Below, in pieces: positions 25,999 through 43,111 of a stretch of 43,966 nt of DNA. Source of the DNA: a virus. The DNA lies in the IMG/VR virus record IMGVR_UViG_3300011102_000097, positions 1 through 43,966 of that record. The stretch is one strand, 5' to 3'. Position numbers and translations under genes: made by a program. Positions within the stretch are counted from its first letter, which is position 1. Every line of letters starts with the position of its first letter. The notes below the pieces were generated by a model that searched no databases, had not been told where the DNA came from, and saw only the letters and a list, made by a program, of their open reading frames with translations.

Positions 25999-28900
25999 TC
26001 AAGGCGTCCGGCTCTCAGGACTGGCCGTACCCGTCACCAGCCCCCGGGCCAGATCCACCGGCCCGGTGGGCTCGATGCGCCCGTCGGCCATGCCGGCGAG
26101 GTAGCCGGCGGGGCGCGCTGCCGCGTAAATCGGCAGACCGGTGATCAGCGTCGCGGCAGCCGCTACGTCGCGCACGGCCTTCTGCGCGCTGCCGTCGTCG
26201 ATGATCGCCTTGTAGACGCTGGCCGGAGCGCTCACGGCGGACTCCAGCAGCGACACCGCGGGCGACAGCGAGAACTTGTCGTCGGCCGGGTTGTCGTTGA
26301 ACCGGTTGACCACGAGCTGCGCCGCTTGGCCCACGATCGGCACCTGGGCGGTCAGGCCCCGCAGCGTGCCCATACCGAACACGGCCATCAGCCAGTCGTC
26401 CAGGTAGCCGTCGTCGTCCTCGTCCTCGGGGCCGCCACGGAACGCCAGGGCGATCGCCTCGGCCACCCAGATCGGCACCAGGAGCCCGGCGAGCGCCACA
26501 TACAGCAGGCGCCCCGCACCCTTGCGCAGGCCCATCTCGTCCACGATCTGCTTCATCGCGGTGGCGTTGGTGTTCGCCATCATGTTGAAGTAGCTCACGA
26601 ACTGCGTGAACAGGCGCGCGTAGGCCGGGCCGCTCTCGAACCGGCTGATGTCCTCGGGCAGCGTCGTGCCCTGGGTCTGGCGGATCACGCCGTCGGCAAA
26701 GCGCACGGCGTCCTTGTGGCTCATCTGCTGCTCGATGGCCTGGTTGTAGGCGGCAGTCCAGATGATCGGGCTCATGGTGTTGTCGACCGCGGCCTGCATG
26801 AAGTAGGCGTGGCGCTGGGTCCAGGCTTGGGCCTTTTCCAGTACGGTCGCGTTGACCAGGATCTGCTCGACGGCGTCGTTCATGGCGGCCACCTCGTTGA
26901 GCATGCGGTTGCGCATGAACGCCGACGCCGTGGCGACTTGCTCCTTCATCGCCTTGGGGTCAGCGATGAACGAGGCGGTGGCCTTCATCATGAGCGAGGG
27001 CTTGACCTTGACCGCGGCCAGCGAGAAGCCGGTGATCTGCTGGAACGTGTTCGAGAGGTTCGCGAACATGAGCGCCATGCCGGCGCGCGAGCGCGCGGCC
27101 GACAGGAAGCGCGAGAGCTTGCGGTCGCCCGCCACCGGGGTCTCGACGATCTGCTTGGCGGCGCGGTTCAACCAGGGGATCAGCATGCCCTCGTAGGCGC
27201 CCGGGTCGATGCGGTCGAGCGCGTAGCTCACGCGCTTGTTCGTGAGCAGACGGCGCACATCGGTGACCGGGCCCTGCATGTACGAGAACAGCAGCACCTT
27301 GTCCATGTGCTGGGCCAGCGCGCGCAGGTCGAGCAGTAAAGGTTTGTTGTACTCGACGCGGGCCTTGGTGAAGCCGCGGGGGCTGGCCGGGAACGCGTAA
27401 GCCATGGACTCGTTTTCGGCCTCGGCCAGCTCACGCAGCTTCGCGTCTTTCACCAGGCGCGAGTCGGTCTGGGCCGGGACGTAGCCGCCGCGGTAGCTGC
27501 CGAACGGGGTGTCGAACGGGGTGGCCGTGACCTCGGCGAAGTAGCGGCCGAACACCTTGCGGTGCGTCTCCTGGGCCCGCGGCTTCATCTCCTCGAGCAA
27601 ATCCCACACACCCTGAGCGAAGTCGTAGTGCGCCTTCTCGAGCTTGCCCTCGTTGATCATGCGCGCGATGAACGCGTCCCAGCGGCTGGTGTCGAGGGTG
27701 CCGTCCTCCCGCTCGGTGGCCCAACCGCGGCCGAGCAGGAGCTTGCGCTTGTTGGACTCGTTGCCGGTGTGCAGGATCGCGTGCAGCAGCTCGGCCTGCC
27801 CGCTGTCGCGAGCGTTGCCGAAGGTGTAGCCGAGCTCAGGCGCGGGGATCTCGCCCGGACGGATGACGTGCGAGACGCTTTCGACCAGCGCGGTGAAGCG
27901 CTTGCGGTAGTCGACGCGCGCGGCGCGATAGGCGTCGGCCGCCTCCTTGATCGGCCGGAACACGAGCCGCAGGAACGGGCCGCCGAACTTGCCGTCCATG
28001 CGCTCGGCCCACTGCTCGACGCGCGAGAGGATGGCCTTGGCGAACTGCAGCTTGATCCCCGCCTCCTCGCGGTCGGTGATCGCGGCGCGCTCGCCCGGGA
28101 TCTCGGTCGGGATGCCGATCTCCTCCATGCGCGCGAGCAGCTCATCGGCGGCGTCTTCGATGTCGAGGAGGTTGCCGTCGACTTCCATCTGCCGCGAGCG
28201 CTTGGCCAGCTCCCACATGGCGCGCAGCTCGTCGTTCAAGCCGCGCAGCTCCTCTAGCGTCAGCTCGTCCAGGGGCTTGGCGTTCAGCAGAGCGCTGTCG
28301 ACGCTGGGTTTGAGCGCGGCGTACATGGCCGGGTCGTTCTTGGCCACGGTCTCCATGTAGGCGAGCGCGGACTTCTCGAGCCGCGGCGCCACGCCGTAGG
28401 CGGCCAGGATGGCGCGCATCGCGTTGACGACGTCGGGGTCGCGCCCCTTCTCCACTGTCTTCTCGTCGCTGCCCTTAGTGACCTTGCGGAAGAACTCGAG
28501 CGTCTTCTTCACCTCGGCCTGGGCGTCCTGCAGCGCCTTGGCGGCGTAGTTGTTCAGGAGCTGGTCGCGCTTGGCCTGCACGGCCTCCACGGTCTTGCCC
28601 TCTGCGGTGAGCTGCTGCCAACGCTTGCCGGCCCGGCCCTCGGCGGCGCGATGCTGCCAGGCGGCGTTCTTCAGATCCTTGATGCGGCGACGTGCAGCCA
28701 GGTTGAGCCCGAACTGCTTGGCCGCCTCGACCACGGCGTTGACCGTGATGGGCCGGCCGCGCGCGTCGGTGCGCCCGGTGTCCAGGCGCTGGTTGATCAT
28801 CTCCGCCTGGCTCTTCAGCTCGGTGGCGAGCGCCCGCGCCCGGGCCTCGTTGTGCACGGCCTCGTTCGCTGCGGCCTCGCGCGCCTCGGGCGTGGCGAGG

Positions 28901-31900
28901 TCACCATAACGCTCGAGCATGCGCTGGTCGGTCATGCCTTCGATCACCTCGTTGATCGGCTGGGCGTCCAGGAGCGCGCGCACCAGTTGGTCGCCAGAGG
29001 CGAAGCCGAACATGTCGGCCACCAGGTCCGGGTGCAGTCCTTCCTTGCTGGTCATCCCGCGCAGACGCGTGAGATCCGGGCGACCCAGCATGGTCTCGGG
29101 GTACATCTCGGCCAGGGCTGCGGTGGAGAGCCGGTAACCCTTCTCGGCCTTCACCAGGTCGCCGGTCTCAGGGTCGACGGTCTCGCCCTTCTTGAGCCAG
29201 CGCATGGCCCGGTAGATCGGCTGCTGCTCGACCTCGGCGCGCACCTCGGACTCGACCTCTTTGCGGAGCTTGGCGGCCTGCTTCTGCAGCGCCTTGAGCG
29301 CCTTGTTGCGAGCGTTGACCGTCCACTTCAAGTCGCGCAGCGACCGCGCCTGCAGCTTCTCGATGGCCTCGTTGGTGGCCTCGAAGTCGGGCAGCATGCC
29401 GGCAGCCTCCTCGGCCTGGGCGATCTGCTCGTCGGTGGCGATCAGGCGGTCGAACACCTGGCGGATGTCGTCGCCAAGCTGCAGGTTGCGGCCTTGCATG
29501 AACTGCTTCAGGCTCTTGTAGACGTTGACCAGCCAAGACCGGAAGCGGCGGAACAGCGGCTGCAGCTCTTGGCTCGGGGCCTTGCCCTCGAACAGGTACT
29601 GCTCGAACGACTCCGCCCAGCGCTCGTGATACGGGCGCTTCTGCTCGAGCGTGTAGCTGTTCCAGGTCTCGAGATCCGGCACGCCGAACCACTTGAGCGT
29701 GGTGGCCATGTCGTCCTTGATTTGCTGCGGCGCGTCGGGTTGGCTCGCGAGATCGGCCAGCACCTCGAGGAAGAAGTGCCCGCTCTCGTGCAGGAACGTC
29801 GAGAGGTCTGCGGTCTCGTTCAGCGTGATCAGCAGCTGCTCGGGGTTGAAGGTGCCCCGCGGACCTTGCTTCAGGATGTTGGGGTCGGCCGGGTCGAACG
29901 TGCCGCGGTTGCCGGTGGCGCTCTTGATCTGCTCGGGGCGGAAGACGATGATGGCATCGAATGTGCCTCGATCGTTGTCCCAGTCAGGCAGGCGGGCACC
30001 GTCATATCCAGCAGCCTCAATGCTGGCCTGGAGGTCGCGCCAGCGTTCGGCGGACCAGTCCCCCTCGTAGTCGAAAAGCCGGCCTTCGAGAACCGCGTCC
30101 ACGGGGTCGATGTCCTCGCCGCTCTGGCGGTCAATCCACTCGTCCCAGTTTTTCGCCCACTCGCGGATGAATGCGCGCCCTTCCTTGCTGCGCGGGTCGA
30201 AGAGCTTTTCCGCTTTCAAGTAGAACGAGCGTGGCTCGGTCATGGACCAGTTGTTTTTCGCCGCATAGGTGCTTGCTATGTCCCGATCCGGGGTGAAGAA
30301 GAATGCTTTTTCCCGCGTCATGCGGCGGTCAAAAACGGTGAAATCCTCGCCACTGCCCTCTCCGCGATAGACCGCCAGCGGCTTGCCGTTGGCGTCCACC
30401 ACCTTGCTGTCACCGAACCAGCGCCAGAAGTTGCGGATGCCTTCTTCGGTCGGGTGGATCGGCTGGCCAGCGCTGTTGCGGGTCGGGCGCTGCACGCCGT
30501 CCACTTCGATGGTCTCGGGCAACCCATCCGCCGATAGCGCAACGCCCTCGCTCTGGTTCGCCATCGCCCCGACATCGCCACCCTGCTCCAGCGGTCGCTC
30601 GCGGTTGATCACGCCCTTCTCGCGCAGGCGCGCGACCATGCGCTCGCCGTCGGCGGTCTGCTTGCGCCCAGGCATGATGTCGTAGCCGGCCTCGCGGGCG
30701 GCGCGGTACATCGCCTCGGCCAACCCTCGGCGGCGGTAGGCGGGCGCCACAATCGTGTTCTCAGCAGCGAGCGTGTTGCCCTGCACCGCGAAGTCGATCA
30801 TGCCGCGGCGGTTGCCGTCGGTGGTGCGCGCCTCGACAATTACCGAGAGCTGGCGATCGGCGCCCATACCGAGCACCTCCCGGCGCAGCGTGATGTTGAA
30901 GCGCTCACCCTGCGCGTCGGTGTAGGTGGTCTCGAAGGTGGGGGCGGCGACCGAGCCTTGCTCCAGCTCCTGGTCTGGCATGTCGGCGGCCCGACCCTCG
31001 ACGGTCAGGCCGCGGTCGGCATTGTAGGCCTGCCCGCCGGGCGACTTCGCGGCCACCTTCAACTGGTAGCGCTCGTAGAGCTCCTGCGGGGTCAGGCCCA
31101 CGCGCGCGGCCATGGTCGAGAAGAAGTTCGCCTGCAGCGTGGCGTAGGCCTCGTTCACGTCGGGCGTGAACCGGCCGGTCTGGTTGAGCTGGTCCAGGAT
31201 GGCTTGCTGCACGGCCTGGGCGCTCTGCTGCCAGGCGGCGGTGTCAGCAGCCTGCTTGAGCACGCGCTCGGCGTCTTGCGCCAGCAGCTGGGCGGTGAGC
31301 TCGGCCTCGGCGCGCGAAGGTGCGTTCGGGCGCATGCGAGCGTGGTCATTCAAGATCTGCTCGAGATCGGTGCCCGGCGCCACCGTGAGCACATCGGCCA
31401 TCGGGATGGCCACGGTGCTGTTGGCCTCGAGCGCGCTGGGCAGCGCCTCGCGCACCGAGTCAGGCAGTTGGGCCAGGAGCTCGGGCGGCAGTTGATTGAG
31501 CACCTCGGCGTCGACGTAGATCTCCTTCTTGGCGCCATCGTTCGCGTCGACCACGCGCTGAATGTGGCTGCGGAACTGCTCGGGGCTGCGGGCGCGCAGC
31601 ATCGAGGCGGCGGCGAGCTGCAGCTGCTGCTGAAACAGATCCTGCTCATAGACCAGCGACTGGTTGCTCGCGGTCTCGACGATCTTGTTGATGGCCTTGA
31701 TCGTGGAGGTCTGCACGCCCACGCCCACGAGCGTGGCGATGAACGTCTGGTAGGCAGCCTCTGGGCGCTCGTTGATGAACTCGGCCAGGGTCTTGTCCGG
31801 GTTCAGGTTCATCCACTCGTTGAAGTCCTGGGCCAGGGTCGTGACCTGCTCGGTCCAGCCCTCGCTCAGGGCCTGGCGGCCGATCGTCTTCAGCAGCCCG

Positions 31901-32802
31901 GTGTTGGCGGCGATGTCGCCGAACAGCTTGCTGGCCGGGATGCGCTCGAACAGGTACTCGAACGCGGCCTCGGGGATGGCGTAGGTGAGCGACTGCACTG
32001 AGGTGCGGCCCTGCTCGCGGGCGCGCATGTACGCGTCTGCACCCACGCCCGTGGCCATGGTGCCGGCCACGGCGGCGGCAGCCTGGTTGGCGGTGCTCCA
32101 CAGCCCCCGGGCCAGACCCAGCGGCAGCAGCGCCAGGTTGGTGCCCGACGACTGCAGTCCGGACTTCACGGCCCGGCCGGTGCTCGACTCGGGCTGGAAT
32201 CCGAGCGCGTCGCGCGCTTCCTTGCTGCGGTTGGCGAGCCCACGCATGTCGCGCGCGCCCGACTGCCAGCCCACCAGGTCGTAGAGCGTGCCGGCGACGT
32301 TGAAGATCATCTCGCCGACGCCGGCGGTGGCGCCGAGCCCGACGTCGACGGCTGCGCCGGCCAGATCCTTGGGCAGCCCGCCCTTGCCGTCGGCGCCCAT
32401 GACGTAGGCGACACCCCGGCCTACCGAGCGCTCGAGGTTCTTGAGCGTGTCGAGGTCATCGACCGAGGTGGCGGCGAAGGTCGGGTCGACCAGCTGCCGG
32501 TAGAGCACCGGCGACTCCTCGGCCAGCCTGACCAGGTCGATCGCGCGGGCGCGTTCCTTGACGCGCAGTTCCTCGAGGTTGCGCTCGATAACAGGCAGCG
32601 GCAGGCCTGAGGTTTGCGACAGGCGCAGACGCTCGGCGGCGAGGTCCGGGTCGTCCTTGAGGGCGGCCTCGATCACCGTGCGGGCGCGGTTTTGCTGCAA
32701 CAACTGTTGCTCGCGTGCCAGGGGCAGGTAGGGGTTGTCCTGCTCGTCTTGGCCTTGGGTTTGCTGTGCGCGCTCCTGCGCCAGGCGCAAATAGTCGGTC
32801 AT
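25999..32802 (-). CDS. Giant internal virion / ejection protein of polyvalent type (GNAT + ART-like + HExxH modules), 2267 aa
   Basis: It is the longest ORF, coupled by ATGA to the upstream internal-virion gene. It has helical and TM-rich ends and three enzyme-like modules in the middle (listed as separate features). Confidence 0.9.
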   Translation of the reverse strand: MTDYLRLAQERAQQTQGQDEQDNPYLPLAREQQLLQQNRARTVIEAALKDDPDLAAERLRLSQTSGLPLPVIERNLEELRVKERARAIDLVRLAEESPVLYRQLVDPTFAATSVDDLDTLKNLERSVGRGVAYVMGADGKGGLPKDLAGAAVDVGLGATAGVGEMIFNVAGTLYDLVGWQSGARDMRGLANRSKEARDALGFQPESSTGRAVKSGLQSSGTNLALLPLGLARGLWSTANQAAAAVAGTMATGVGADAYMRAREQGRTSVQSLTYAIPEAAFEYLFERIPASKLFGDIAANTGLLKTIGRQALSEGWTEQVTTLAQDFNEWMNLNPDKTLAEFINERPEAAYQTFIATLVGVGVQTSTIKAINKIVETASNQSLVYEQDLFQQQLQLAAASMLRARSPEQFRSHIQRVVDANDGAKKEIYVDAEVLNQLPPELLAQLPDSVREALPSALEANSTVAIPMADVLTVAPGTDLEQILNDHARMRPNAPSRAEAELTAQLLAQDAERVLKQAADTAAWQQSAQAVQQAILDQLNQTGRFTPDVNEAYATLQANFFSTMAARVGLTPQELYERYQLKVAAKSPGGQAYNADRGLTVEGRAADMPDQELEQGSVAAPTFETTYTDAQGERFNITLRREVLGMGADRQLSVIVEARTTDGNRRGMIDFAVQGNTLAAENTIVAPAYRRRGLAEAMYRAAREAGYDIMPGRKQTADGERMVARLREKGVINRERPLEQGGDVGAMANQSEGVALSADGLPETIEVDGVQRPTRNSAGQPIHPTEEGIRNFWRWFGDSKVVDANGKPLAVYRGEGSGEDFTVFDRRMTREKAFFFTPDRDIASTYAAKNNWSMTEPRSFYLKAEKLFDPRSKEGRAFIREWAKNWDEWIDRQSGEDIDPVDAVLEGRLFDYEGDWSAERWRDLQASIEAAGYDGARLPDWDNDRGTFDAIIVFRPEQIKSATGNRGTFDPADPNILKQGPRGTFNPEQLLITLNETADLSTFLHESGHFFLEVLADLASQPDAPQQIKDDMATTLKWFGVPDLETWNSYTLEQKRPYHERWAESFEQYLFEGKAPSQELQPLFRRFRSWLVNVYKSLKQFMQGRNLQLGDDIRQVFDRLIATDEQIAQAEEAAGMLPDFEATNEAIEKLQARSLRDLKWTVNARNKALKALQKQAAKLRKEVESEVRAEVEQQPIYRAMRWLKKGETVDPETGDLVKAEKGYRLSTAALAEMYPETMLGRPDLTRLRGMTSKEGLHPDLVADMFGFASGDQLVRALLDAQPINEVIEGMTDQRMLERYGDLATPEAREAAANEAVHNEARARALATELKSQAEMINQRLDTGRTDARGRPITVNAVVEAAKQFGLNLAARRRIKDLKNAAWQHRAAEGRAGKRWQQLTAEGKTVEAVQAKRDQLLNNYAAKALQDAQAEVKKTLEFFRKVTKGSDEKTVEKGRDPDVVNAMRAILAAYGVAPRLEKSALAYMETVAKNDPAMYAALKPSVDSALLNAKPLDELTLEELRGLNDELRAMWELAKRSRQMEVDGNLLDIEDAADELLARMEEIGIPTEIPGERAAITDREEAGIKLQFAKAILSRVEQWAERMDGKFGGPFLRLVFRPIKEAADAYRAARVDYRKRFTALVESVSHVIRPGEIPAPELGYTFGNARDSGQAELLHAILHTGNESNKRKLLLGRGWATEREDGTLDTSRWDAFIARMINEGKLEKAHYDFAQGVWDLLEEMKPRAQETHRKVFGRYFAEVTATPFDTPFGSYRGGYVPAQTDSRLVKDAKLRELAEAENESMAYAFPASPRGFTKARVEYNKPLLLDLRALAQHMDKVLLFSYMQGPVTDVRRLLTNKRVSYALDRIDPGAYEGMLIPWLNRAAKQIVETPVAGDRKLSRFLSAARSRAGMALMFANLSNTFQQITGFSLAAVKVKPSLMMKATASFIADPKAMKEQVATASAFMRNRMLNEVAAMNDAVEQILVNATVLEKAQAWTQRHAYFMQAAVDNTMSPIIWTAAYNQAIEQQMSHKDAVRFADGVIRQTQGTTLPEDISRFESGPAYARLFTQFVSYFNMMANTNATAMKQIVDEMGLRKGAGRLLYVALAGLLVPIWVAEAIALAFRGGPEDEDDDGYLDDWLMAVFGMGTLRGLTAQVPIVGQAAQLVVNRFNDNPADDKFSLSPAVSLLESAVSAPASVYKAIIDDGSAQKAVRDVAAAATLITGLPIYAAARPAGYLAGMADGRIEPTGPVDLARGLVTGTASPESRTP
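29776..29790 (-). other. HESGH zinc-metallopeptidase motif (aa 1005-1009)
   Basis: The reverse complement of 29776-29790 is CAC GAG AGC GGG CAC. The protein context is ADLSTFLHESGHFFLEVL. Confidence 0.7.
29908..30480 (-). other. ADP-ribosyltransferase-like (ART-PolyVal-type) module (aa ~775-965)
   Basis: KPLAVYRGEGSGEDFTVFD...KAFFFTPDRDIASTYA...AIIVFRPEQIKSATGNRGTFDP matches the domain as I remember it. No profile search was run. Confidence 0.55.
30598..30930 (-). other. GNAT acetyltransferase-like module (aa ~625-735 of the giant protein)
   Basis: IDFAVQGNTLAAENTIVAPAYRRRGLAEAMYRAAREAGYDIMP carries the R-x-x-G-x-A acetyl-CoA motif. I checked the coordinates against the DNA (CGC CGA GGG TTG GCC GAG at 30732 downward). 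Confidence 0.7.
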
Positions 32803-34418
32803 TTAGCGGTGCCTTTCTTGCCGGCGAGGTACATCTCGACGATGGCTTGTTCGGTGACGAGCTGGCCGGTGGCCTGCAGGGCCTGGATGATCTGGCGGCG
32901 GTCGATCGCAGGCACGGAGGACACGAGCACGTTCTTGCCGTTGACGCGCACGTAGGCCTTGTCCATCTCCTCAGGCGTCAAGAGCACGACCGGTTTCTCG
33001 GGGTCGCGGCCCCACTCATCAACGTACACCTTGTCGAGCATCACGCGGTCGACGATCGCTTGCTTCTCGTCCGCGGTCAGATCCTTCCCGCCCTTGGCGG
33101 CGGAGGCGGCGCGCACGCGGCGGTCGATCTCGCCGGTCAGCTTGACTGCGGTCTCGGGGTCTTTCTTCGGATCGACGCCCAGGTTCACCAGCGCGTTGCG
33201 GATGCGCGCCTCGTCTGTGAGCATGGTGTCTTGCTTGACGCCCCCAGTGCGCAGAGCGTCCTGGAGGTCGAGCAGCCGCTCCATGTCGGAGGGGCTGATC
33301 TTCTCGACGTAGGCGCGCAGGTCGACCTTCTCGCCGTTGGCGAGCTTCTCGCGCAGGTCAATGTAGGTGGCGACGTCAGTCTTGACCGGAGCGCCGGTGG
33401 CCAGGCGCTCGGCGCGGGCGCGTTGCGCCTCCTGCAGTTGCACGCGCTCGCGCCCGGACATCTGCAAGAGGATCGCCTCGGGGATCTTCTTGCCTTGGGC
33501 GAAGAGCTGCCAGGCCTGGTCGGCGGCGGCGTTCTCGCGCTCCTGCTCGGCCTGACGCACCAGCGCGTGGTTGTTGCGGATCTGGGTGAGCGTCTTCTCT
33601 CGGCGCGCGGGGTCCGTGATCTTGGCCGCCTCGGCGAGCTGGTCGCCAAGCGGCTTGTTGGCCACGCTGGCGGCGAACTGGGCGGCGAACTGGTTGTCGG
33701 CCTCGGCCTTGAGCACCTGCTCGACACGGGCCTGATGCGCGAAGTTGACCTCGGCTTTGTTGGCGTCGTAGTAGGCCTGGGCGGCCTCGGCGTTGCTCTC
33801 GGCCAGCTTGGTGATCTGGGCCAAGTGCATGGCCGAGAGGTTCTTCAGCGCCTCGGCCTGCACCTGCTCGGTGGTCCAGCCCTTGCGCGCGCCGAGGATC
33901 GCGGCCTTCTCGCGGATCTGCTGCGCGGCGCTCGCGACATCGCCCGAGGTCACGCCGAACTGGATCGTGGTCGCAACGTCGGCGGCGTAGGTCTCGTCCG
34001 CGAAGCGCTCTTTCTCGGCGTTGACGAATGCACCCACCGAGTTGATCGCCTGCAGGCGCTTGGTGGCCAGGCTCTTGCTGACCAACGCCCGGGCGCGCGG
34101 GTCGAGCTCCTTGCCATAGGTCTCGGCGGCTTTGGCCCACCACTCTTCGGCGGCCGGGCCGTAGCCGTCGACGTTCTGCCCGCGGTATTGCTGGCGCGCC
34201 TGGGCGTCCCACCTCAACCACTCGCTGGTGATCTTGGCCTCGGCGTCAAACGCTTTGGCCTGGGCCTCGCGCAGGTCGATGCGGTCGGCGACATCGGCCA
34301 CGCGCATCAGCGCCTCGCCGGCGCGCATCAAGTCGCGGCCGACATCGGGCGCACGCTGAAAACCACCCTCGAGCGCTTGCTCGCGGACGCGCGGTTCGTA
34401 GGTTGGAACGACCGGCAT
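32799..34418 (-). CDS. Internal virion / ejection protein, 539 aa, alpha-helical
   Basis: ORF track entry, adjacent to the upstream gene and coupled by ATGA to the giant gene. The call is position-based. Confidence 0.7.
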   Translation of the reverse strand: MPVVPTYEPRVREQALEGGFQRAPDVGRDLMRAGEALMRVADVADRIDLREAQAKAFDAEAKITSEWLRWDAQARQQYRGQNVDGYGPAAEEWWAKAAETYGKELDPRARALVSKSLATKRLQAINSVGAFVNAEKERFADETYAADVATTIQFGVTSGDVASAAQQIREKAAILGARKGWTTEQVQAEALKNLSAMHLAQITKLAESNAEAAQAYYDANKAEVNFAHQARVEQVLKAEADNQFAAQFAASVANKPLGDQLAEAAKITDPARREKTLTQIRNNHALVRQAEQERENAAADQAWQLFAQGKKIPEAILLQMSGRERVQLQEAQRARAERLATGAPVKTDVATYIDLREKLANGEKVDLRAYVEKISPSDMERLLDLQDALRTGGVKQDTMLTDEARIRNALVNLGVDPKKDPETAVKLTGEIDRRVRAASAAKGGKDLTADEKQAIVDRVMLDKVYVDEWGRDPEKPVVLLTPEEMDKAYVRVNGKNVLVSSVPAIDRRQIIQALQATGQLVTEQAIVEMYLAGKKGTAK

Positions 34419-35003
34419 TCACCACCCCCGGTAGGTGTACCACTTGTCGGCCACCTGCCCGGCCCCGGTCAGCAGCGTGCTACCGGCCGAGAGCCATGGG
34501 CGCTGGGAGAGCGCTTCGGCCTGGAAGCTGCTGGACTGGCTGCGCCGGGCGAAGGCTTCCTTGCGCGCGTTGGTGCGCACGGTGGCGACATCGTACTCGC
34601 CGAAGAAATCGGTCTGGTCTTGCAGGTCGGCGGCGGTGCCGTAGGTCAGGTCCAGCCCCTTGGCGGCCAAGCTCACGCGCTGCGCGCTTTTGGTGGCGGC
34701 CACCCGCCGTCGCAGCTCGGCAGCCTCGCGCTCACCACGGCGCAGCGCGTCTTCGGCCTGCAGCTCGGCCAGCTTGGCGTTGCGCGCGGCGACCTCGCCG
34801 GCGACTTTGGATTGTTGGTAGGCACCGATCGCCGAGATGGCGGTGCCCGCGGCGGAGAGCCCCAGGCTCAGCATCTGGGCGGTGGTCATGCCGGCAGCGG
34901 CGGTTCCCGCAGCGGCGGCAGTGCCGGCTGCAGCAGCGGTGCCAGCCGCCGCGGTGCCACCGAACCAAGAGCCAATGGCGGCGAGTGCTGCCGGTGCACA
35001 CAT
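34419..35003 (-). CDS. Internal virion protein (T7 gp14-like position) with GTAAA(A) repeats, 194 aa
   Basis: N-terminus GGTAAAGTAAAAGTAAAAGTAAAG is followed by a hydrophobic helix and a coiled coil. Confidence 0.65.
   Translation of the reverse strand: MCAPAALAAIGSWFGGTAAAGTAAAAGTAAAAGTAAAGMTTAQMLSLGLSAAGTAISAIGAYQQSKVAGEVAARNAKLAELQAEDALRRGEREAAELRRRVAATKSAQRVSLAAKGLDLTYGTAADLQDQTDFFGEYDVATVRTNARKEAFARRSQSSSFQAEALSQRPWLSAGSTLLTGAGQVADKWYTYRGW
34890..34960. repeat. Imperfect ~15-nt periodic repeat encoding GTAAA(A) units
   Basis: Read directly from 34886-34965. Confidence 0.6.
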
Positions 35004-35005
35004 GG

Positions 35006-35482
35006 TCAGGCTCGCATTTCAAATGGGTGGAAGGGCTCGCCCAGCGGGCCGTAAGGCACGGCCTCGTGCAGCGTGAACCCCAACCGGCGCAACCATCGCA
35101 CGCTGGTGGTGTTCTTCGCGTGCACGTAGTTCACCAGATGGGGGAACATCTTCAGCATTCGGGAAATGTACTCGGGGGTCCGGCGGACAAGGATACGCTG
35201 GTGTCGTTCGAGCACGGGCGTGCCGAGCATCCAGGGCGAGCCGATACCGGTGAGCGCGTTGATCGGGGCCACGCCGAAGATCGCGGCGAGATCGCCGTCC
35301 GCCAGGCCGGTCCAGCACAGCGCCGAGCGGTCCACGCTCGAGGCGATGCTGGCGGCGATGTCGGGGTGCCCGTAGGCCTGGCACTCGGCCAGGTCGGAGG
35401 CGCGCAGGTTGGCAAAAAGCCGGGCAGCATCGCCCGGCTCGGTGGGCCGGATCAGGACATCAGCCACCGGTCTGGACCTCAA
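35006..35482 (-). CDS. Acetyltransferase-fold / T7 gp13-like virion protein, ~153-158 aa
   Basis: The pattern is ...LCWTGLADGDLAAIFGVAP...SPWMLGT...LVNYVHAKNTTSVRWLRRLGF. The track start is TTG 35482. GTG 35467 with GAGG upstream is the more likely start. Confidence 0.6.
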   Translation of the reverse strand: MRSRPVADVLIRPTEPGDAARLFANLRASDLAECQAYGHPDIAASIASSVDRSALCWTGLADGDLAAIFGVAPINALTGIGSPWMLGTPVLERHQRILVRRTPEYISRMLKMFPHLVNYVHAKNTTSVRWLRRLGFTLHEAVPYGPLGEPFHPFEMRA

Positions 35483-37769
35483 GCGTCATCGACAGCACCG
35501 TGAGCGGCAGCGGCAGATCCTGGCGCACGCATACGGCGCCGTCCTGGTTCCAGCTCGGGTCGATGGAGAGCGTGAGCTCGCCGTCGCGCAGCGCGGGCGG
35601 CGAGCCGTAGGGGTCAGTGACGGCGCGCGCCGGATACTCGCGCAGGCGGTCGAACGCGGGGCCGGCCTTGACGAGCGAGGACTGCGCCACGCGCAGGTGC
35701 ACCTTGTTGACGTTCTTGACCGTGCCCTGCCCTGCGGCCTGCGCGCTCTCGAGCACCAACGGCAGCGTGCGCAGGTCGGAGACCATCGGCAGGCCGACGT
35801 GGACCTTGCTCGCGGGGTAGTCGAGCGTGATCGCCCCGCCCGACACCACGCGCTGCGGGTGCACGGCACCATCGGCCAGGATGTCGACCGTCTTGCCTTC
35901 AAGGTGCTCGAGACCCGAGAGCGTCGTGACGGGCGGCCCGTCGTAGGTGAGCCCTGAGTCGACGAAGAACGCATCGGCCGGGTCCGTGAACAGGCGCGAG
36001 CGCAGGCGCTCGATGTAGCGCAGCGCGGTGCCGCCGATCGTGCGGCGCACCACCGCGTAGAGCACGTCCTCATTGTTCTCGGGGACGACGCACACCGACT
36101 CGAACGCGCCGTCGGTGTCGTGCGCGTGCCAGCCGTAGACCTGCTGGTCGGGCACGTAGGTCATGCCGAGCAGCACGCCGTCGTTGCGCACGGCCCAGCA
36201 GATCGAGTCGGGCGCACGGCTGTAGGCCAGGTCGGTGATCGTGAACCCGTTGAACCGATGCGGCGCCATGATCGAGGCGTCGACAGAGCGGTAGGCATTG
36301 GCCTCCCAGTTGTAGGAGAGCTCACGAATCCGCGAGCCCTGGGCCTGCACGTAGAGGATCGAGCCCGTTGTCACCACCGGCTGCACGTTGCTGGCGCCGG
36401 CGTACCCCTGGGGCTTGATCGTCACGGTCGTGGGCGTGATCGCGGGCGCCCCGTCGGAGTAGATACGGAACTCACCGCCCGCGGTGAACGCGATCAGGTC
36501 GGAGAGCGCGACCAGGTGGCGGACCCTGTTGTACTGGCCGGATGCAATGCGCAGCTCCATGCCGTCGGCATCCCGCGAGGGGATCGAGCTCGTCAGGTTC
36601 GACTCGGTGCCGGTGCGCGTGGCCCACAGCACTTGGGGTTTGTTGTCGCTGCCGGCAAACCAGCGGCGCTGCTCGTGGTAGGTCGTGGCGGCCGGGTAGT
36701 CGCCGGTGCCAGCGTTCAGCGCGATGATGTTCTCGGGCGGCGACTGCGTGGTGTCGGGCAGCACGTTGTCGTCGATGACCGAGAACTGGGGTATCGAGGC
36801 GGTGCCGGTGTTGGCGCTGCTCGTGGCATCGGTGACCGACTCGTAGGTGAACGTGGTCGGGCCCGTGACCGTGATCACCCAGGCGCCGTCCAGGCTGGGC
36901 ACACCGGTACCCTCGATCAGCACCAGGTTCTCGTTGGCAAAGCCGTGCGGGGTGGTGGTGGTGACGGTGACGGTCTTGTCGCCTGCACCGGGTCGGTTGA
37001 TGGTGGCGATCGTTTTGGTGGTGGCGCCGGTGTTGGGGTGAGCCTGACCAATGAAGCCGTAGATACCCCCGCGCAGCTTGTAGACGTTGTAGCGCGTGTT
37101 GCCGCCTACCGCGGACCAACTGATGGTGTTGTAGTTGCCGGCCAGCGTGAGGTTGTTGCTCGCAGCCTTGGGCTCAGAGGGCAAGGATTCCGTGACGCCG
37201 TCGTCGGCCACGGTGGTGACCACGTACTTCTGCGTGGTCTTGTTTTGGTTGTTGGCGACAGTGGCCGTCACGGCCACATCGGTCGGTGCGTTAGCGGGCG
37301 GGGCGAACGACAGCGTGGTGAGCACCCAGTTGGTGGCGCCCAGGCGCTTCAACTCGCGGGTAGCGTAGCTCGGGTGCGTGATCGTGATCACGTCCGCCGA
37401 CTGCGCGTAGTGCAGGTCGAAGAGGTCGGCGCCCTGGTAGGGGCTCGAGATCTGGTACGGCAGGTCCGTGACCGGGTCGAGCAGTGTGGCACCCCCGATA
37501 TGGAAGCGGATGTACTGGTGGCCGAACTCGAGCACCGCAGTCTGGTCGGCGCTGAAGGTGAACGGGATCAGGCGCACGGGGTGGGACGAGTCGCCCGCGG
37601 CGCGGATGAACTCGAAGCCAGGCCGGCGCGCGGCGGGCCCGTGCGGCAGCGTGATGAAGTTGCGCGCGAGCGCGAGGCCGGTCTGGTACTTGACCAGGTC
37701 CAGGCGACCGGCCAGCTCGGGCGTGATCTCGCCGCCAGCGAATGAGCGGAGCAGGAACTTGGTGCTCAT
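35460..37769 (-). CDS. Tail tubular protein B-like (nozzle)
   Basis: 769 aa with N-terminus FLLRSFAGGEITPELAGRLDLVKYQTGLALARNFITLPHGPAARRPGF, typical of podovirus gp12-type proteins as I recall. Confidence 0.7.
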   Translation of the reverse strand: MSTKFLLRSFAGGEITPELAGRLDLVKYQTGLALARNFITLPHGPAARRPGFEFIRAAGDSSHPVRLIPFTFSADQTAVLEFGHQYIRFHIGGATLLDPVTDLPYQISSPYQGADLFDLHYAQSADVITITHPSYATRELKRLGATNWVLTTLSFAPPANAPTDVAVTATVANNQNKTTQKYVVTTVADDGVTESLPSEPKAASNNLTLAGNYNTISWSAVGGNTRYNVYKLRGGIYGFIGQAHPNTGATTKTIATINRPGAGDKTVTVTTTTPHGFANENLVLIEGTGVPSLDGAWVITVTGPTTFTYESVTDATSSANTGTASIPQFSVIDDNVLPDTTQSPPENIIALNAGTGDYPAATTYHEQRRWFAGSDNKPQVLWATRTGTESNLTSSIPSRDADGMELRIASGQYNRVRHLVALSDLIAFTAGGEFRIYSDGAPAITPTTVTIKPQGYAGASNVQPVVTTGSILYVQAQGSRIRELSYNWEANAYRSVDASIMAPHRFNGFTITDLAYSRAPDSICWAVRNDGVLLGMTYVPDQQVYGWHAHDTDGAFESVCVVPENNEDVLYAVVRRTIGGTALRYIERLRSRLFTDPADAFFVDSGLTYDGPPVTTLSGLEHLEGKTVDILADGAVHPQRVVSGGAITLDYPASKVHVGLPMVSDLRTLPLVLESAQAAGQGTVKNVNKVHLRVAQSSLVKAGPAFDRLREYPARAVTDPYGSPPALRDGELTLSIDPSWNQDGAVCVRQDLPLPLTVLSMTLEVQTGG

Positions 37770-38401
37770 GCGCGGACCGCCAGCAGCGTGGGTTGCGGCA
37801 GCGACTCGGCGCTCGAGGCGTTGGCGCTCGCGGTGGCGGACACGTCAGCGAGCGCAAGTGCGCGCTGGCGCATGCCGTCGCCCACGCGCACGCCCTCGTT
37901 GCCTTTGATGATAGGCCCGGCCAGGTAGCTGGCCAGCAGGTAGGACAGCGCGCTGATGAAGCTCGCCGGGAACTTGGTCGAGTCGGTCACGTCTTGCACG
38001 TAGACCAGCACCGCGTCGGGTTCGTTGGTGAAAATCACGTCGCCCTCGACGTCAAACGAGGCGCTGCCGCTATCGTCGGCGTGGGGGTCAACCACCAGGT
38101 CCTGGGTGAACACCGTGACGGCGATCGAGGGGCGCAGGATGCGCAGCGCACGCAGGCAGTTCGATGGCTTGGCGTAGGCGTAGGCCCAGCCCGTGCTGGG
38201 GTTGGTGACCTCGGCCAGGGGGGCGCGCTTGAGTGAAAACGCCCAGTTGCCGGGCTCGAGCAGCTCGGTGCGGGCGAGATCGTAGAACATGGCGCAGTGG
38301 CCGGCCTCGACCGAGCCGTCGGGCGGGCTGATCGACGAGACGCGGGCCTCAGAGCCGATGTGGCTCAGGGCCATGTTGCAGATCTGGACGACTGAGGCCA
38401 T
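37766..38401 (-). CDS. Tail tubular protein A-like (adaptor)
   Basis: 211 aa with N-terminus VVQICNMALSHIGSEARVSSISPPDGSVEAGHC. It is coupled by ATGA to the nozzle gene. Confidence 0.6.
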   Translation of the reverse strand: MASVVQICNMALSHIGSEARVSSISPPDGSVEAGHCAMFYDLARTELLEPGNWAFSLKRAPLAEVTNPSTGWAYAYAKPSNCLRALRILRPSIAVTVFTQDLVVDPHADDSGSASFDVEGDVIFTNEPDAVLVYVQDVTDSTKFPASFISALSYLLASYLAGPIIKGNEGVRVGDGMRQRALALADVSATASANASSAESLPQPTLLAVRA

Positions 38402-39244: not shown

Positions 39245-40237
39245 TTAGACGACGCGGGCCTCGGTGTTGACCAAGGCGTCGGTGCGGCGCACCGGGATGT
39301 CGTCGAAGGTCATCACGCGCTCGCCGGCGACGGTTTCCCAGGTCAGGTTGCTCGAGATCTTCTCGAGGATGCCAAGACGCAGCTTCTCACGCAGGCGGCG
39401 GTTCATGTAGAACGCGGCGCGGCCCTTGCCCAGCTCGGGGATGCGCTCGGTGGCCTGGATCATCCAGTCGATGATGTTCTTGGTGTTGGCGACCGTGTTC
39501 AGCTCGGACAGGTCGATGTTGGCGATGCGCACGAAGTAGCGCCAGTCGCGGATGGTCAGACCGGCGTCCCAGCGGTAGTGCGTGCGGTAGGCCTCCATGC
39601 GGCCGCCGTTGCCGTCGACGTTCTCGACCGTCACCTGGCCCTTGTCGGTCATCTGCAGCCCGGCGGTGGAGCCCTTGGGGTAGATGCCGTGGCCGGTCTG
39701 GGGGCCCCACACGCACAGCCAGATCGAGGTGTTGTCGGAACCCGTGCCGCCAGCGTCGATGATGTTGTCGCCGTTCTGGGCGGACAGCGAGTTGTAGCGC
39801 GGGGCCAGGCCGGTGAAGGCTTCAGGCTCGGTGCCCTCGTTGCCGTAGAACAGCGTGGAGGCCATCTCCTGGCTCATGGCCTCGATGTGGGCAGCATCTT
39901 CGGACAGGCGGAAGGCGGCGGTGTTGCCGTTCAGGTCGGCCAGGGCCTTGTCGACCTCCGCGTAGGCCTCCAGCATGCCGCAAGAGTCGGTCACCTGGAC
40001 GGTGGTCGACTTGGTGGGTTGAACGCCGCCGTACAGCTTGCGCCAGGTCGGGGTGGGCAGGCCGGTGCGGATGGTGGTGCGGTGGCCGGTCGGCAGGTTG
40101 CCTTCGACGAAAGTCAGGTCGTCCAGCACCGGGTTGACCGCGTTGAGGATCTCGACGATCGCTGCGATCTTGCCATCGGGGTCGAGGCGCTTGGCGACAT
40201 CGAGCAGCGTCGGGTTGTTTGCGGCGAGAGCAGCCAT
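39245..40237 (-). CDS. Major capsid protein (BPP-1 Bbp17-like HK97 fold)
   Basis: 330 aa, lying after the scaffold gene. The codon usage looks like that of a highly expressed gene. This is a family recollection, not a search result. Confidence 0.85.
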   Translation of the reverse strand: MAALAANNPTLLDVAKRLDPDGKIAAIVEILNAVNPVLDDLTFVEGNLPTGHRTTIRTGLPTPTWRKLYGGVQPTKSTTVQVTDSCGMLEAYAEVDKALADLNGNTAAFRLSEDAAHIEAMSQEMASTLFYGNEGTEPEAFTGLAPRYNSLSAQNGDNIIDAGGTGSDNTSIWLCVWGPQTGHGIYPKGSTAGLQMTDKGQVTVENVDGNGGRMEAYRTHYRWDAGLTIRDWRYFVRIANIDLSELNTVANTKNIIDWMIQATERIPELGKGRAAFYMNRRLREKLRLGILEKISSNLTWETVAGERVMTFDDIPVRRTDALVNTEARVV

Positions 40238-41219: not shown

Positions 41220-42914
41220 TTATTCGCCGATCATCCGCGGGCTCGGCGAGTCGTAGCCCATGAGCCCACCCAGCAGGTCCTGCAAGTTGTCGGTGTCGAT
41301 CTCGCTCGCGGTCTTCGCAGACTCCACCACCTGCGGGGCGGCGGCCGCGGCCTGCTGCGCCTGCATGGCAGCGGCGCGCTGCTGGCGCAGGGCGGCGACC
41401 TGGTCGTCGGGCACGATGATCTTCGGGTCCACGCCGTAGGCCTCGCCGTAGTTGTCGACCACCTGGTCGAAGTCGATTTTGTCGAGCACGTCGGGCCTGA
41501 CCGCGGCCATCTGGCTCACAACGCCGAGCAGGCGGTCCGTGCCCTGAGTGGCCACCGCACGCTGAGCCTGCGCCAGCACGCTGATGAACTCGACGTTGAG
41601 CTCCATGCCCTCGAGCTCGGGCGGCGCCTCCGGCAGGATGCCGGCGCGGTTGGCGTAGTCGAACGTGATGTCGATCAGCGGGGATAGCAGCTCGTTGTGC
41701 AGACGCTCGAGCACGGGGCCGAGCATCAGCAGCTTCTCCTCGTGGCGCTCGGCCACCTCGGTGGCAGTGATGCCCGAGCGATTGTCGTTCGCGAGCATCA
41801 GGAACAGGTCGGCGTAGTAGGCCGAGCGGATGCGCTCGCGCACGTCATGGATGTCGAGCAACAGGTGCTCCAGGTTGAGCTGCACCTCGAACGCCGAGCG
41901 CACGCCTTGGCCTTGGCCCACGCTGTCGACGTAGAACACGCCGCCGGGCAGGCGGGCCTTGGCGGCCTCTTTGTACTTGGTCGGCACCTGCAGTGGGGGG
42001 TTGACCTGGTAGTCGATCGCCTGCCCCTTGCGCAGCTGCTGGTGTTGCAGCTGCTTGACATCACCCAGACACTCCATACCAGGGCTGGTGCCGTAGACGT
42101 CATTGCCGGTCACGACCCAGCGCGGGGCCAGGGCGGGGAAGCGCTCGAAGCCCGACTCGCTCAGGAACTTGTCGGCCTGGTCCTTGCCCGGCTCCAGGTA
42201 GATCGAGGCAAAGCGCATGTTGCGCGCGTCGCGCTTGCTCAGATCGCGGTTCTTGCGCGGCTCGATCATGTGGATGACGTCCACCCACGCGTCGTAGTTG
42301 CCGCGGTTGAACAGGTCGCGCACGGTCTGGCTGCAGTTGTCCTTGCCAAACTGCTCGACCATCTGCGCCACGGTCATCTGAAACTCGCGGCACAACGTGT
42401 CGACCTCGCCCTTGCTGTTGGTCGCGAGCGCGTACTCGCCCACCGTCAGCGGGTAGTGATGGATCACGTTGTCGAAGTCGGGCAACACGATCGCGCAGGC
42501 GGTGCCGAACAGGCCCAGCTCCTCGTAGATCGTGTGCAGGGTGCGGTAGGTGTTGGAACTCGCGAAAATCGCGCGCAGCAGGTCGGCGACGTCGTGCAGC
42601 CAGGTCTTGACCGGGCCCGACTCCATCAGGTCCTTGTCTTTGATCTCGAGGCGGAACCAGGGGCGCGCCGGGCTCGTCACGCCCGACATCAGGCCGGCGG
42701 CCAGCGTGCGGGCGCCGAACACGGCGGTGTTGTCCAGGATGTGGTTGGTGCGCTTGTCGCCGCGGTTGCGGTCGGTGACGACAAAGCGCCCGGCGCGCGG
42801 CTGCTGGTACTCACTGATCTCGCGCCAGTGAGTGATCCAGCTCGCGCGCTCTTTCCACAGCGCGCTCTTGCGCGCGAGGATGCGCTGCCGTTGGTTTACC
42901 GGCTTGCCGTCCAT
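41220..42914 (-). CDS. Portal (head-to-tail connector) protein
   Basis: About 564 aa. The N-terminus is MDGKPVNQRQRILARKSALWKERASWITHWREISEYQQPRAGRF and ...SPARPWFRL is typical of podovirus connector proteins. The start is ATG 42914 (TGATG overlap) or GTG 42917. Confidence 0.88.
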   Translation of the reverse strand: MDGKPVNQRQRILARKSALWKERASWITHWREISEYQQPRAGRFVVTDRNRGDKRTNHILDNTAVFGARTLAAGLMSGVTSPARPWFRLEIKDKDLMESGPVKTWLHDVADLLRAIFASSNTYRTLHTIYEELGLFGTACAIVLPDFDNVIHHYPLTVGEYALATNSKGEVDTLCREFQMTVAQMVEQFGKDNCSQTVRDLFNRGNYDAWVDVIHMIEPRKNRDLSKRDARNMRFASIYLEPGKDQADKFLSESGFERFPALAPRWVVTGNDVYGTSPGMECLGDVKQLQHQQLRKGQAIDYQVNPPLQVPTKYKEAAKARLPGGVFYVDSVGQGQGVRSAFEVQLNLEHLLLDIHDVRERIRSAYYADLFLMLANDNRSGITATEVAERHEEKLLMLGPVLERLHNELLSPLIDITFDYANRAGILPEAPPELEGMELNVEFISVLAQAQRAVATQGTDRLLGVVSQMAAVRPDVLDKIDFDQVVDNYGEAYGVDPKIIVPDDQVAALRQQRAAAMQAQQAAAAAPQVVESAKTASEIDTDNLQDLLGGLMGYDSPSPRMIGE

Positions 42915-43111
42915 CACTGCCCGAGCAGGGTCGTGCGTCCGGTGGTCAGCGCGCCCTGGGGCACGCCCGAGGGGCCGGTGAGCAGTGAGCCGCCCGCCAT
43001 GCCAGTGCGGTTACGGCGTGCGCTCGCCCGCAGGTTGGCGCTGTCGGGTTGCTTGACCTCTTGCGGAGGCGGCGGGGGCGGCGGAATGTCGGGGCTTTTG
43101 GCCAGGCACAT
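42914..43111 (-). CDS. 65-aa poly-proline protein
   Basis: ATG 43111 lies 8 nt after AGGAG. Translation is MCLAKSPDIPPPPPPPQEVKQPDSANLRASARRNRTGMAGGSLLTGPSGVPQGALTTGRTTLLGQ. The upstream part of track ORF 42914..43387 overlaps terL and is rejected. Confidence 0.6.
   Translation of the reverse strand: MCLAKSPDIPPPPPPPQEVKQPDSANLRASARRNRTGMAGGSLLTGPSGVPQGALTTGRTTLLGQ

Follow-up and report, generated by a model that had tools for sequence, protein, structure and literature searches.

The window, by which we mean the whole stretch of DNA analysed here (43,966 nucleotides, positions 1 to 43,966 of the IMG/VR virus record IMGVR_UViG_3300011102_000097), carries on its minus strand a giant gene whose open reading frame (ORF), at 25999-32802, runs from ATG to stop and encodes a protein of 2267 amino acids (aa). 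It is the largest ORF of the window, the two runners-up encoding 920 and 869 aa. An initial annotation, made from the sequence by a model, had described it as a polyvalent virion protein with three enzymatic heads: a GNAT acetyltransferase, an ART-PolyVal ADP-ribosyltransferase-like domain and an HExxH peptidase. The ORF and the positions of all the motifs quoted in that description were confirmed. We show here that the GNAT and ART modules together form a cassette, lying between two constant scaffolds, which is exchanged by recombination between otherwise near-identical phages, and that the HExxH domain belongs to one of the scaffolds. [quoted passage not shown]

Constant scaffolds and an exchangeable cassette

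A word-indexed homologue search retrieved 213 metagenomic proteins, encoded mostly on contigs of 40-46 kb, and the coverage of the window protein was counted by local BLAST against 119 listed relatives among these 213. Three regions could be delimited in this way (Table 1). In the N-terminal scaffold, 80/119 relatives cover the extreme N-terminus and 111-119/119 cover aa 51-575. Coverage then collapses to 8-60/119 over the following 380 aa (8-24 in the GNAT part and about 36-60 in the ART part), and returns to 106-119/119 in the C-terminal scaffold, with at least 113 up to aa 2250. The C-terminal scaffold is common to phages of eight distant host groups, and its start always reads Q-G-(P/A)-R-G-T-F-(N/S)-P. 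Between the two scaffolds the relatives carry cassettes of 53 to 1676 aa (median 874), in which we found ART-PolyVal, DUF7178, PBECR5, PBECR1 (in Bbp10 of phage BPP-1), LPD37, DUF3293 together with a Zeta toxin, RadC-like JAB and ParB domains.

The boundaries of the cassette are also visible at the DNA level. The contig L011, which encodes the relative P0003, shares 89% identity with the window across the upstream genes and as far as codon 592; from codon 977 on and into the tail fibre gene the figure is 93.4%. Nothing aligns between these two codons, where L011 has 1276 codons as against 384 in the window. Because the flanks are near-identical and the middle cannot be aligned, the GNAT and ART modules are a cassette that recombination has exchanged between otherwise near-identical phages. 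The HExxH domain, which had been counted as one of three enzymatic heads, lies outside it: since the start motif of the C-terminal scaffold is constant and the HExxH helix follows 20 residues further on, this domain is a fixed part of the chassis and not a swappable head.

The motif L-x-Q-G, found exactly three times in the window protein and each time at a module junction (aa 613, 738 and 977), was considered as a general joint or cleavage motif between modules. Counted over 120 relatives, it occurs 0.99 times per 1000 aa in cassettes versus 0.31. Since nearly all of this excess comes from the one fixed junction at the start of the C-terminal scaffold, the rule was rejected.

The HExxH domain

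The HExxH domain directly follows the cassette and comprises a beta-hairpin, the HExxH helix and a later helix. Its motif, HESGH (aa 1005-1009, exactly at 29776-29790), is the only HExxH of the protein and is invariant in 120/120 metagenomic homologues and in 8/8 homologues from isolated phages, which share 25-41% identity with it (BPP-1, Xanthomonas CP2, Limnohabitans DC33, Caulobacter Jess A, Pseudomonas AF, a Vibrio phage, Nostoc Nsp-JY18 and Octadecabacter OANV1). An alignment of 31 sequences, reaching down to 41% identity, showed that H1005, E1006, H1009, W1047, H1059, E1060, A1063, E1067 and Y1095 are all invariant, H1059, E1060, A1063 and E1067 being encoded at 29602-29628. In an AlphaFold2 (AF2) model, whose block-mean predicted local distance difference test (pLDDT) is 91-98 over aa 1000-1099, HExxH lies on a helix spanning aa 1000-1019 and the second motif, H-E-x-x-A-x-x-x-E, on a helix spanning aa 1052-1072. 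In zincin-like metallopeptidases, the third metal ligand is a Glu on a helix that comes after the HExxH one. The site is very probably functional and hydrolase-like.

The initial annotation had compared this motif with those of MPTase-PolyVal domains. The motif is there, and invariant, but membership of that family found no support. Pfam searches on sub-segments at E ≤ 10 returned no peptidase family, from a library that presumably holds the MPTase-PolyVal model, and an NCBIfam search left the domain unmatched. A profile of the HExxH family matched no PDB sequence, and Foldseek against BFVD matched the model to uncharacterised homologues only. A hidden Markov model (HMM) of the HExxH core gave no cross-match with other polyvalent giants that have an HExxH of their own; these giants do not match the Pfam MPTase model either. 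The assignment to MPTase-PolyVal or to a solved zincin was thus rejected, neither a profile nor a fold having matched. An HExxH with an E-x-x-A-E-x-F about 50 residues on is reminiscent of gluzincins such as anthrax lethal factor.

We propose that the domain is most likely a zinc hydrolase, which would cut the polyprotein in cis and free the payload. Both self-processing and unprocessed delivery have been discussed for peptidase domains in polyvalent proteins (Iyer et al. 2017, PMC5512222). The domain may instead be an effector protease or hydrolase acting on envelope or cytoplasmic proteins of the host while the phage penetrates, or a structural metal site for folding or assembly of the core, a reading that we regard as possible but somewhat doubtful. 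It would account well for the place of the HExxH in the constant scaffold, where it is kept in relatives with almost no cassette: because it is conserved even there, its role would be independent of the payload. It also agrees with the failure to match any known peptidase profile or fold, with the lack of a shared cleavage motif, and with the delivery of the N4 virion RNA polymerase and ArdC in unprocessed form despite such domains (Iyer et al. 2017, PMC5512222). On the other hand, the location right after the cassette junction, with the conserved Q-G-P-R-G-T-F next to the hairpin, fits a role in cis, and the general-base residue E1006 is invariant besides the two histidines, which points to catalysis and not to mere metal binding.

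Two further observations concern this domain. A second insertion hot spot lies inside it, between the two motif-bearing helices at aa ~1041-1043 (~29674-29680), where P0002, P0004, P0005, P0038, P0241, P0251 and P0259 have about 120-200 extra residues. In addition, two homologues carry a second, different HExxH in their variable region: CP2 gp25 (L002) at aa 926 (VVLHEVLHGV), for which no Pfam peptidase match was obtained, and Pseudomonas AF gp16 (L005) at aa 807 (VVMHEVQHAIQ).

The GNAT-like and ART-PolyVal modules

The first module of the cassette contains the segment RRRGLAEAMYRAA (aa 690-702, 30697-30735), in which R690-R-R-G-L-A695 (30718-30735) conforms to the acetyl-CoA motif A, (Q/R)-x-x-G-x-(G/A). 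Across the alignment of the module, the motif A residues Y-R-x-x-G-x-A are invariant. Four Pfam models of the GNAT clan match aa ~655-706 with E = 1.7e-5 to 0.12, and all of them score under their cut-offs: 25.3 against 30 (Acetyltransf_CG), 20.9 against 27, 20.3 against 20.7 and 12.8 against 23.6, the first three with E = 1.7e-5 to 7e-4. Sub-threshold scores were obtained in 5/5 modules (the window's and four homologous ones). The AF2 model of aa 615-750 has a mean pLDDT of 74.8 and shows five strands followed by a helix, a strand and a helix, with motif A between the predicted fifth strand and the next helix. Searched against the PDB with Foldseek, it had GNATs as its top 50/50 matches (probability 0.95-1.00, E = 9.5e-4 to 4e-2), including RimI (5isv) and the minimal E. 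coli YjdJ (5i0c; target-normalised template-modelling (TM) score 0.57); the E-values, like the TM-scores (0.33-0.51), are modest. An exhaustive profile search found the module in 351 representative proteins, and its short relatives P0272, P0312, P0321, P0327 and P0342 exceed the Pfam GNAT cut-offs. Despite the shortfall with Pfam, the GNAT call made initially is accepted because of the predicted fold and this transitive homology: aa 616-741 are predicted to hold a truncated GNAT, some 110 residues long, whose motif A is intact.

The same GNAT-like module was seen in giants built on other scaffolds (P0250, P0270 and P0253), which are of the LPD38 type, a domain also present in phi24B gp47, or, in one case, a protein of 4133 aa in which InPase and SNF2-like helicase domains occur. 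By this sequence evidence the module moves between different polyvalent chassis. By tblastn the module also matches, weakly (E = 1e-3, 30% identity), the C-terminal part of g067 of Cellulophaga phage phi14:2 (aa 1553-1668; L012 6001-6348). The phage is crAss-like, and g067, whose place in the virion was confirmed by tandem mass spectrometry (MS/MS), has a single cysteine in its 1797 aa and is encoded beside g066, annotated as "Catalytic RNA polymerase subunit", an annotation also based on MS/MS.

The second module matches the full length of the ART-PolyVal profile (positions 1-140) well over the Pfam cut-off, so that this part of the initial description holds. It includes AVYRGEGSGEDFTVFD at aa 810-825, KAFFFTPDRDIASTYA at aa 832-847 and IIVFRPEQIKSATGNRGTFDP at aa 951-971. 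The published active site of ART-PolyVal consists of a His in strand 1, a Tyr in strand 2 and an Asp in strand 5 (Iyer et al. 2017, PMC5512222). The initial annotation had itself chosen the conservation of catalytic residues as a test of its proposal, and the window protein fails this test at the strand-1 histidine, which is R813. The strand-1 motif reads (V/M)-Y-H-G-T in 41/42 ART modules of the protein family and V-Y-R-G-E here; over all 121 aligned sequences, the column holds His in 111 and Arg in 10. The other two positions are kept: Y846 stands in a column with 79 Tyr and 20 Phe among 121, and D934 is shared by 114/121. Judged by this conservation, Y846 and D934 are presumably the published strand-2 Tyr and strand-5 Asp.

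The six nearest ART relatives (P0121-P0126) in a search with this module by itself, free-standing proteins of 179-301 aa with 42-60% identity, all have Arg at this position. They and the window protein share the signature [YWF]-R-G-[DE], F-D-R, R-E-x-A-F-F-F-T-P and G-Y-D-G-A-x-L-P-D-W-D, and the clade retains the other ART motifs FFFTP..IA..YA, GYDG and QIKS. The change arose at least twice, the second time in P0231, P0232 and P0239. In the R-S-E clade of ART toxins, NAD+ is bound by an arginine at this place in strand 1. Since all six of the nearest relatives keep the Arg, R813 looks like the mark of a selected variant clade and not like decay, and the module is a predicted ADP-ribosyltransferase.

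P0121, the closest ART relative and itself an Arg variant, belongs to a head-to-tail array of 15 called genes on Logan contigs from SRR29782982 (L009, 1479-14896) and SRR29782974 (L010). The array has at least 11 separate ART-PolyVal genes of 188-986 aa, several with 4-base overlaps; most have the canonical Y-H-G-T, P0121 itself having Y-R-G-D. A single protein with 12 ART copies has been mentioned (Iyer et al. 2017, PMC5512222); the array of P0121 consists of separate genes.

If both domains of the cassette were passengers without catalysis, the ART a pseudo-enzyme through the replacement of its NAD+-binding histidine and the GNAT a binding or structural domain, the protein would be purely a channel-forming core. 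R813 in place of the His of the 41/41 other family modules and of 111/121 ART-PolyVal sequences lends itself to such a view, as do a GNAT that falls under every Pfam cut-off and has no N-terminal alpha1-alpha2 region, and cassettes as short as 53 aa, which suffice and make the payload dispensable for the core function. Against it, seven sequences at 42-60% identity keep the Arg along with every other ART motif, and it recurred in P0231, P0232 and P0239; as the NAD+-binding residue of the R-S-E clade, it need not inactivate the enzyme. The GNAT motif A is invariant, and minimal GNATs such as YjdJ do fold. We hold the passenger explanation to be unlikely.

Probable identity as an ejection protein

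A close known counterpart is Bbp10 of phage BPP-1 (NP_958679), which is homologous to the window protein over aa 36-598 and 982-2244 (BLASTP E = 8e-71 and 2e-147), both scaffolds thus being covered, and the gene neighbourhood is identical around the two genes. HMM-HMM matching led to the listing of Bbp10, within the epsilon15 subgroup, as a homologue of IVP-D (T7 gp16) (Hardies et al. 2016, Table 2, PMC4819975), and internal virion proteins (IVPs) are described in the same paper as hosting domains destined for the cytoplasm. The giant gene lies after those for IVP-A, IVP-B and IVP-C and before the tail fibre gene, that is, in the slot of T7 gp16, as the initial annotation had placed it. The protein combines at least two disparate domains, contains a large polyvalent protein associated domain (LPD) and is encoded among virion genes, all features of polyvalent proteins. 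Indeed the polyvalent architecture proposed at the outset was borne out by two domains above threshold: ART-PolyVal and LPD22, the latter previously overlooked. LPD22 is also present in Bbp10, CP2 gp25 and the DC33 homologue, and has been placed among possibly enzymatic domains (Iyer et al. 2017, PMC5512222).

Hydrophobic helices had been announced for both ends of the protein. One strong stretch was found, within LLYVALAGLLVPIWVAEAIALAF (aa 2099-2121): the 19-residue Kyte-Doolittle mean reaches 2.17 at aa 2102-2120, and no other segment attains 1.5. Within the N-terminal 400 aa the sequence is Gly/Ala-rich, as claimed (22% G+A), and not transmembrane-like on the same scale.

The composition of the protein provides a separate line of evidence. 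There is no cysteine in its 2267 aa, nor in the neighbouring 539-aa protein, and 110/120 relatives have none either (0.007% Cys overall). The replication proteins of the same phage contain 1.0-2.2% Cys, free-standing ART-PolyVal proteins 0.29% and short GNAT-like proteins 0.38%. T7 gp15 and gp16, which are experimentally known to be ejected, have none. The cassette thus shares the cysteine depletion of its carrier, as would fit a payload that unfolds, passes through the tail channel and crosses the oxidising periplasm, and the compositional signature independently supports the ejection route. Cysteine is nearly absent from BPP-1 Bbp11 and Bbp12 (L001) as well, other proteins of these phages having 0.4-2.2%, and its absence might offer an inexpensive way of predicting which phage proteins are ejected.

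It is very unlikely, in our opinion, that the protein is never delivered and acts in the producer cell or in the capsid, by late modification of phage or host proteins or as an assembly factor. Expression from the late operon would put it in the producer cell at a high level; yet its syntenic position and homology are those of ejected proteins, its extreme cysteine depletion is shared with T7 gp15 and gp16, and the polyvalent gp47 was found inside phi24B virions. That the protein is a lysin or a "crystallin beta/gamma motif" protein, as GenBank annotates Bbp10, OANV1 gp16 and the Nsp-JY18 and Caulobacter phage homologues, is highly improbable, since Pfam, PHROGs and NCBIfam found no muralytic or crystallin domain and the labels appear to have been copied from the original Bbp10 record.

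As to database records, the labels given to the homologues ("crystallin beta/gamma motif-containing protein", "lysin", "lysis protein") are supported by no profile search, and Limnohabitans phage DC33, whose 39 kb encode this podovirus type of giant protein, is classified in its record under Inoviridae, which looks wrong.

Neighbouring genes, phage and host

With its roughly 44 kb, the window seems to hold almost all of a phage genome. One side carries genes for a primase, an exonuclease, a DNA polymerase and a helicase, and a terminase fragment lies at the contig end. The structural block, on the minus strand, runs from the portal through the major capsid protein, tail tubes A and B, a gp13-like protein, an internal virion protein and the 539-aa protein to the giant gene and the tail fibre or spike (Table 1), in the order of T7 gp13-gp17. 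The ATG of the giant gene overlaps the stop of the 539-aa gene as ATGA.

Table 1. Features of the giant gene and of the structural block around it, with the evidence for each.
Feature	Position in the window	Strand	Basis
Portal	41220-42917	minus	
Major capsid protein	39245-40237	minus	
Tail tube A	37766-38401	minus	
Tail tube B	35460-37769	minus	
T7 gp13-like protein, 158 aa	35006-35482	minus	Pfam PF11090, 24.2 bits vs cut-off 25 (just under)
Internal virion protein, 194 aa, in IVP-B (T7 gp14) position	34419-35003	minus	PHROG 418 "internal virion protein", E = 5e-30
539-aa protein in IVP-C (T7 gp15) position, cysteine-free, coupled in translation with the giant gene	32799-34418	minus	PHROG 10475 over aa 260-535
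Whole giant gene, 2267 aa, probable IVP-D (T7 gp16-like) type, polyvalent	25999-32802	minus	PHROG 9880 over aa 982-2262; Bbp10 homology
Constant N-terminal scaffold, aa 1-598	31009-32802	minus	Coverage by relatives; DNA identity with L011
LPD22 domain, aa 40-127	32422-32685	minus	Pfam PF18834, 58.4-61.4 bits vs cut-off 28.6
Variable effector cassette (GNAT + ART), aa 599-978, 380 aa	29869-31008	minus	Collapse of coverage; gap with L011
Minimal GNAT-like acetyltransferase module (predicted), aa 616-741	30580-30957	minus	Sub-threshold Pfam; fold; relatives
ART-PolyVal ADP-ribosyltransferase-like module, aa 803-969	29896-30396	minus	Pfam PF18760, 67.2-71.7 bits vs cut-off 31.2
Codon CGC (R813), position of the family's strand-1 histidine	30364-30366	minus	ART alignments
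Constant C-terminal scaffold, aa 979-2267, starting PRGTFNPEQLL	25999-29868	minus	Coverage by relatives; DNA identity with L011
HExxH domain (beta-hairpin, HExxH helix, later helix), aa 979-1110	29473-29868	minus	Invariant residues; AF2 model
Sole strongly hydrophobic, transmembrane-like helix, aa 2099-2121	26440-26508	minus	Kyte-Doolittle
Tail fibre/spike, beta-helix	23542-25938	minus	

The 539-aa protein matched no Pfam domain, and BLASTP detected no similarity between it and Bbp11 of BPP-1, which bears a transglycosylase; the sole match of its C-terminal half is a PHROG labelled "endolysin". A muralytic domain was identified nowhere in the ejection module of the window. The large ORFs scanned in the window, from the primase to the terminase fragment, included no phage RNA polymerase, and because of this and of the Bbp10 homology we assign the phage to the epsilon15/BPP-1-like podoviruses rather than to the T7-like Autographiviridae. 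A megablast search for a near-identical known phage returned none, the best DNA match having 76% identity over 335 bases. The G+C content of about 66%, and a nearest cultured relative that infects Limnohabitans, suggest a freshwater betaproteobacterium as host.

Proposed mechanism

In the reading that we favour, the gene encodes an IVP-D core or ejection protein which would carry its payload as follows. A few copies would be packaged in the capsid core and, on adsorption, ejected ahead of the DNA or with it. Both constant scaffolds would serve the packaging in the core and form a conduit across the envelope, to which the single hydrophobic helix may contribute. The cassette would reach the cytoplasm, where acetylation and ADP-ribosylation of host targets would take place before phage gene expression, the purpose being host take-over or a pre-emptive disarming of defences.

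Several points weigh against this scheme. Neither phmmer with the whole protein nor a profile of the whole family matched T7 gp16 or any solved structure, among PDB sequences which we take to include T7 gp16 structures; because there is no direct match to a solved structure, the link to IVP-D rests on Bbp10 and on the published HMM-HMM analysis. The BPP-1 paper, in which only the two capsid bands were analysed, does not report Bbp10 in virions. With respect to the payload, the replacement of the canonical ART histidine by R813 makes the activity uncertain, and the GNAT is truncated to about 110 aa, with a model of moderate confidence and Foldseek TM-scores of only 0.33-0.57. With respect to the release, in the model of the HExxH domain just two strands, paired as a hairpin, precede the active-site helix, as compared with the three-stranded sheet of zincins; Foldseek against the PDB found no zincin or peptidase, its best matches (E = 0.29) being unrelated helical proteins; and no conserved cleavage-site motif was established across the family.

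Comparison with known systems

The window protein resembles BPP-1 Bbp10 in both scaffolds (32-34% identity), in LPD22, in the invariant STFLHESGHFFLE motif and in gene order. Unlike the window protein, Bbp10 carries in its cassette a PBECR1 nuclease-like domain and not GNAT and ART; BPP-1 is temperate and has a diversity-generating retroelement. With polyvalent proteins at large, it shares the presence of unrelated enzymatic domains in one late-expressed phage polypeptide. The families LPD22 and ART-PolyVal were both defined in that context, where a GNAT family typically adjoins ART in (pro)phage polyvalent proteins (Iyer et al. 2017, PMC5512222). The differences are that this GNAT family was reported mainly from gammaproteobacterial (pro)phages, the Arg in place of the H of H-Y-D and an HExxH domain that matches no Pfam family.

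Like T7 gp16, it has its gene between those for the small internal virion proteins and that for the tail fibre, is the largest virion protein of its phage and has no cysteine; T7 gp16 has an annotated N-terminal transglycosylase and no cytoplasm-directed enzymes, and no direct sequence match joins the two. The N4 virion RNA polymerase, gp50, is likewise a giant IVP-D-related protein in which an enzyme destined for the cytoplasm is embedded and delivered with the DNA (Hardies et al. 2016, PMC4819975); it contains a metallopeptidase domain, and an ART is fused in its relatives (Iyer et al. 2017, PMC5512222). It differs in that its payload is an RNA polymerase and that it is reported to be packaged unprocessed. 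A functional model for the ART module is provided by T4 Alt, an ADP-ribosyltransferase which is packaged in the capsid, injected, and modifies proteins of the host as it enters. Alt belongs to the R-S-E, Alt/VIP2 clade and, being a small myovirus protein in its own right, is not part of a channel-forming protein. Finally, gp47 of the short-tailed phage phi24B (bioRxiv 10.64898/2026.04.10.717836) is a polyvalent protein of 2811 aa which proteomics revealed in virions and for which a role in ejection has been proposed, on a different scaffold with LPD5, LPD1, LPD38 and a MuF-C peptidase.

Implications

The class to which the window protein belongs is known, through polyvalent proteins (Iyer et al. 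2017), IVP-D proteins with cytoplasmic domains (Hardies et al. 2016) and the phi24B giant (2026 preprint). The initial statement that none of this type had been characterised went too far in view of the association of GNAT with ART in the first, the IVP-D domains in the second and the virion giant of phi24B. Current concepts are unchanged by our finding. What is specific to this case is the sharply bounded exchange of the cassette between near-identical phages, the invariant HExxH at the junction, which no profile model covered, the Arg-variant ART clade, and a cysteine-free signature that extends to the payload. A bolder interpretation, which we advance only tentatively and consider rather unlikely as a whole, would make of this large family of podovirus core proteins a modular effector-delivery chassis, with unrelated enzymes swapped by recombination at a defined point between two invariant scaffolds, a family-specific HExxH release protease built in right behind that point, and, in this phage, an Arg-variant ART-PolyVal clade converging on the R-S-E toxins, maybe with a different substrate.

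If the proposed mechanism is true, an acetyltransferase and an ADP-ribosyltransferase would be delivered before any phage transcription, at the earliest point for disabling defences or redirecting the host machinery. Phages with flanks about 90% identical, in which the cassette alone differs, constitute a natural experiment through which the function of payloads could be mapped by way of host ranges. The sharp and conserved insertion point further suggests that phages may be engineered to deliver chosen proteins.

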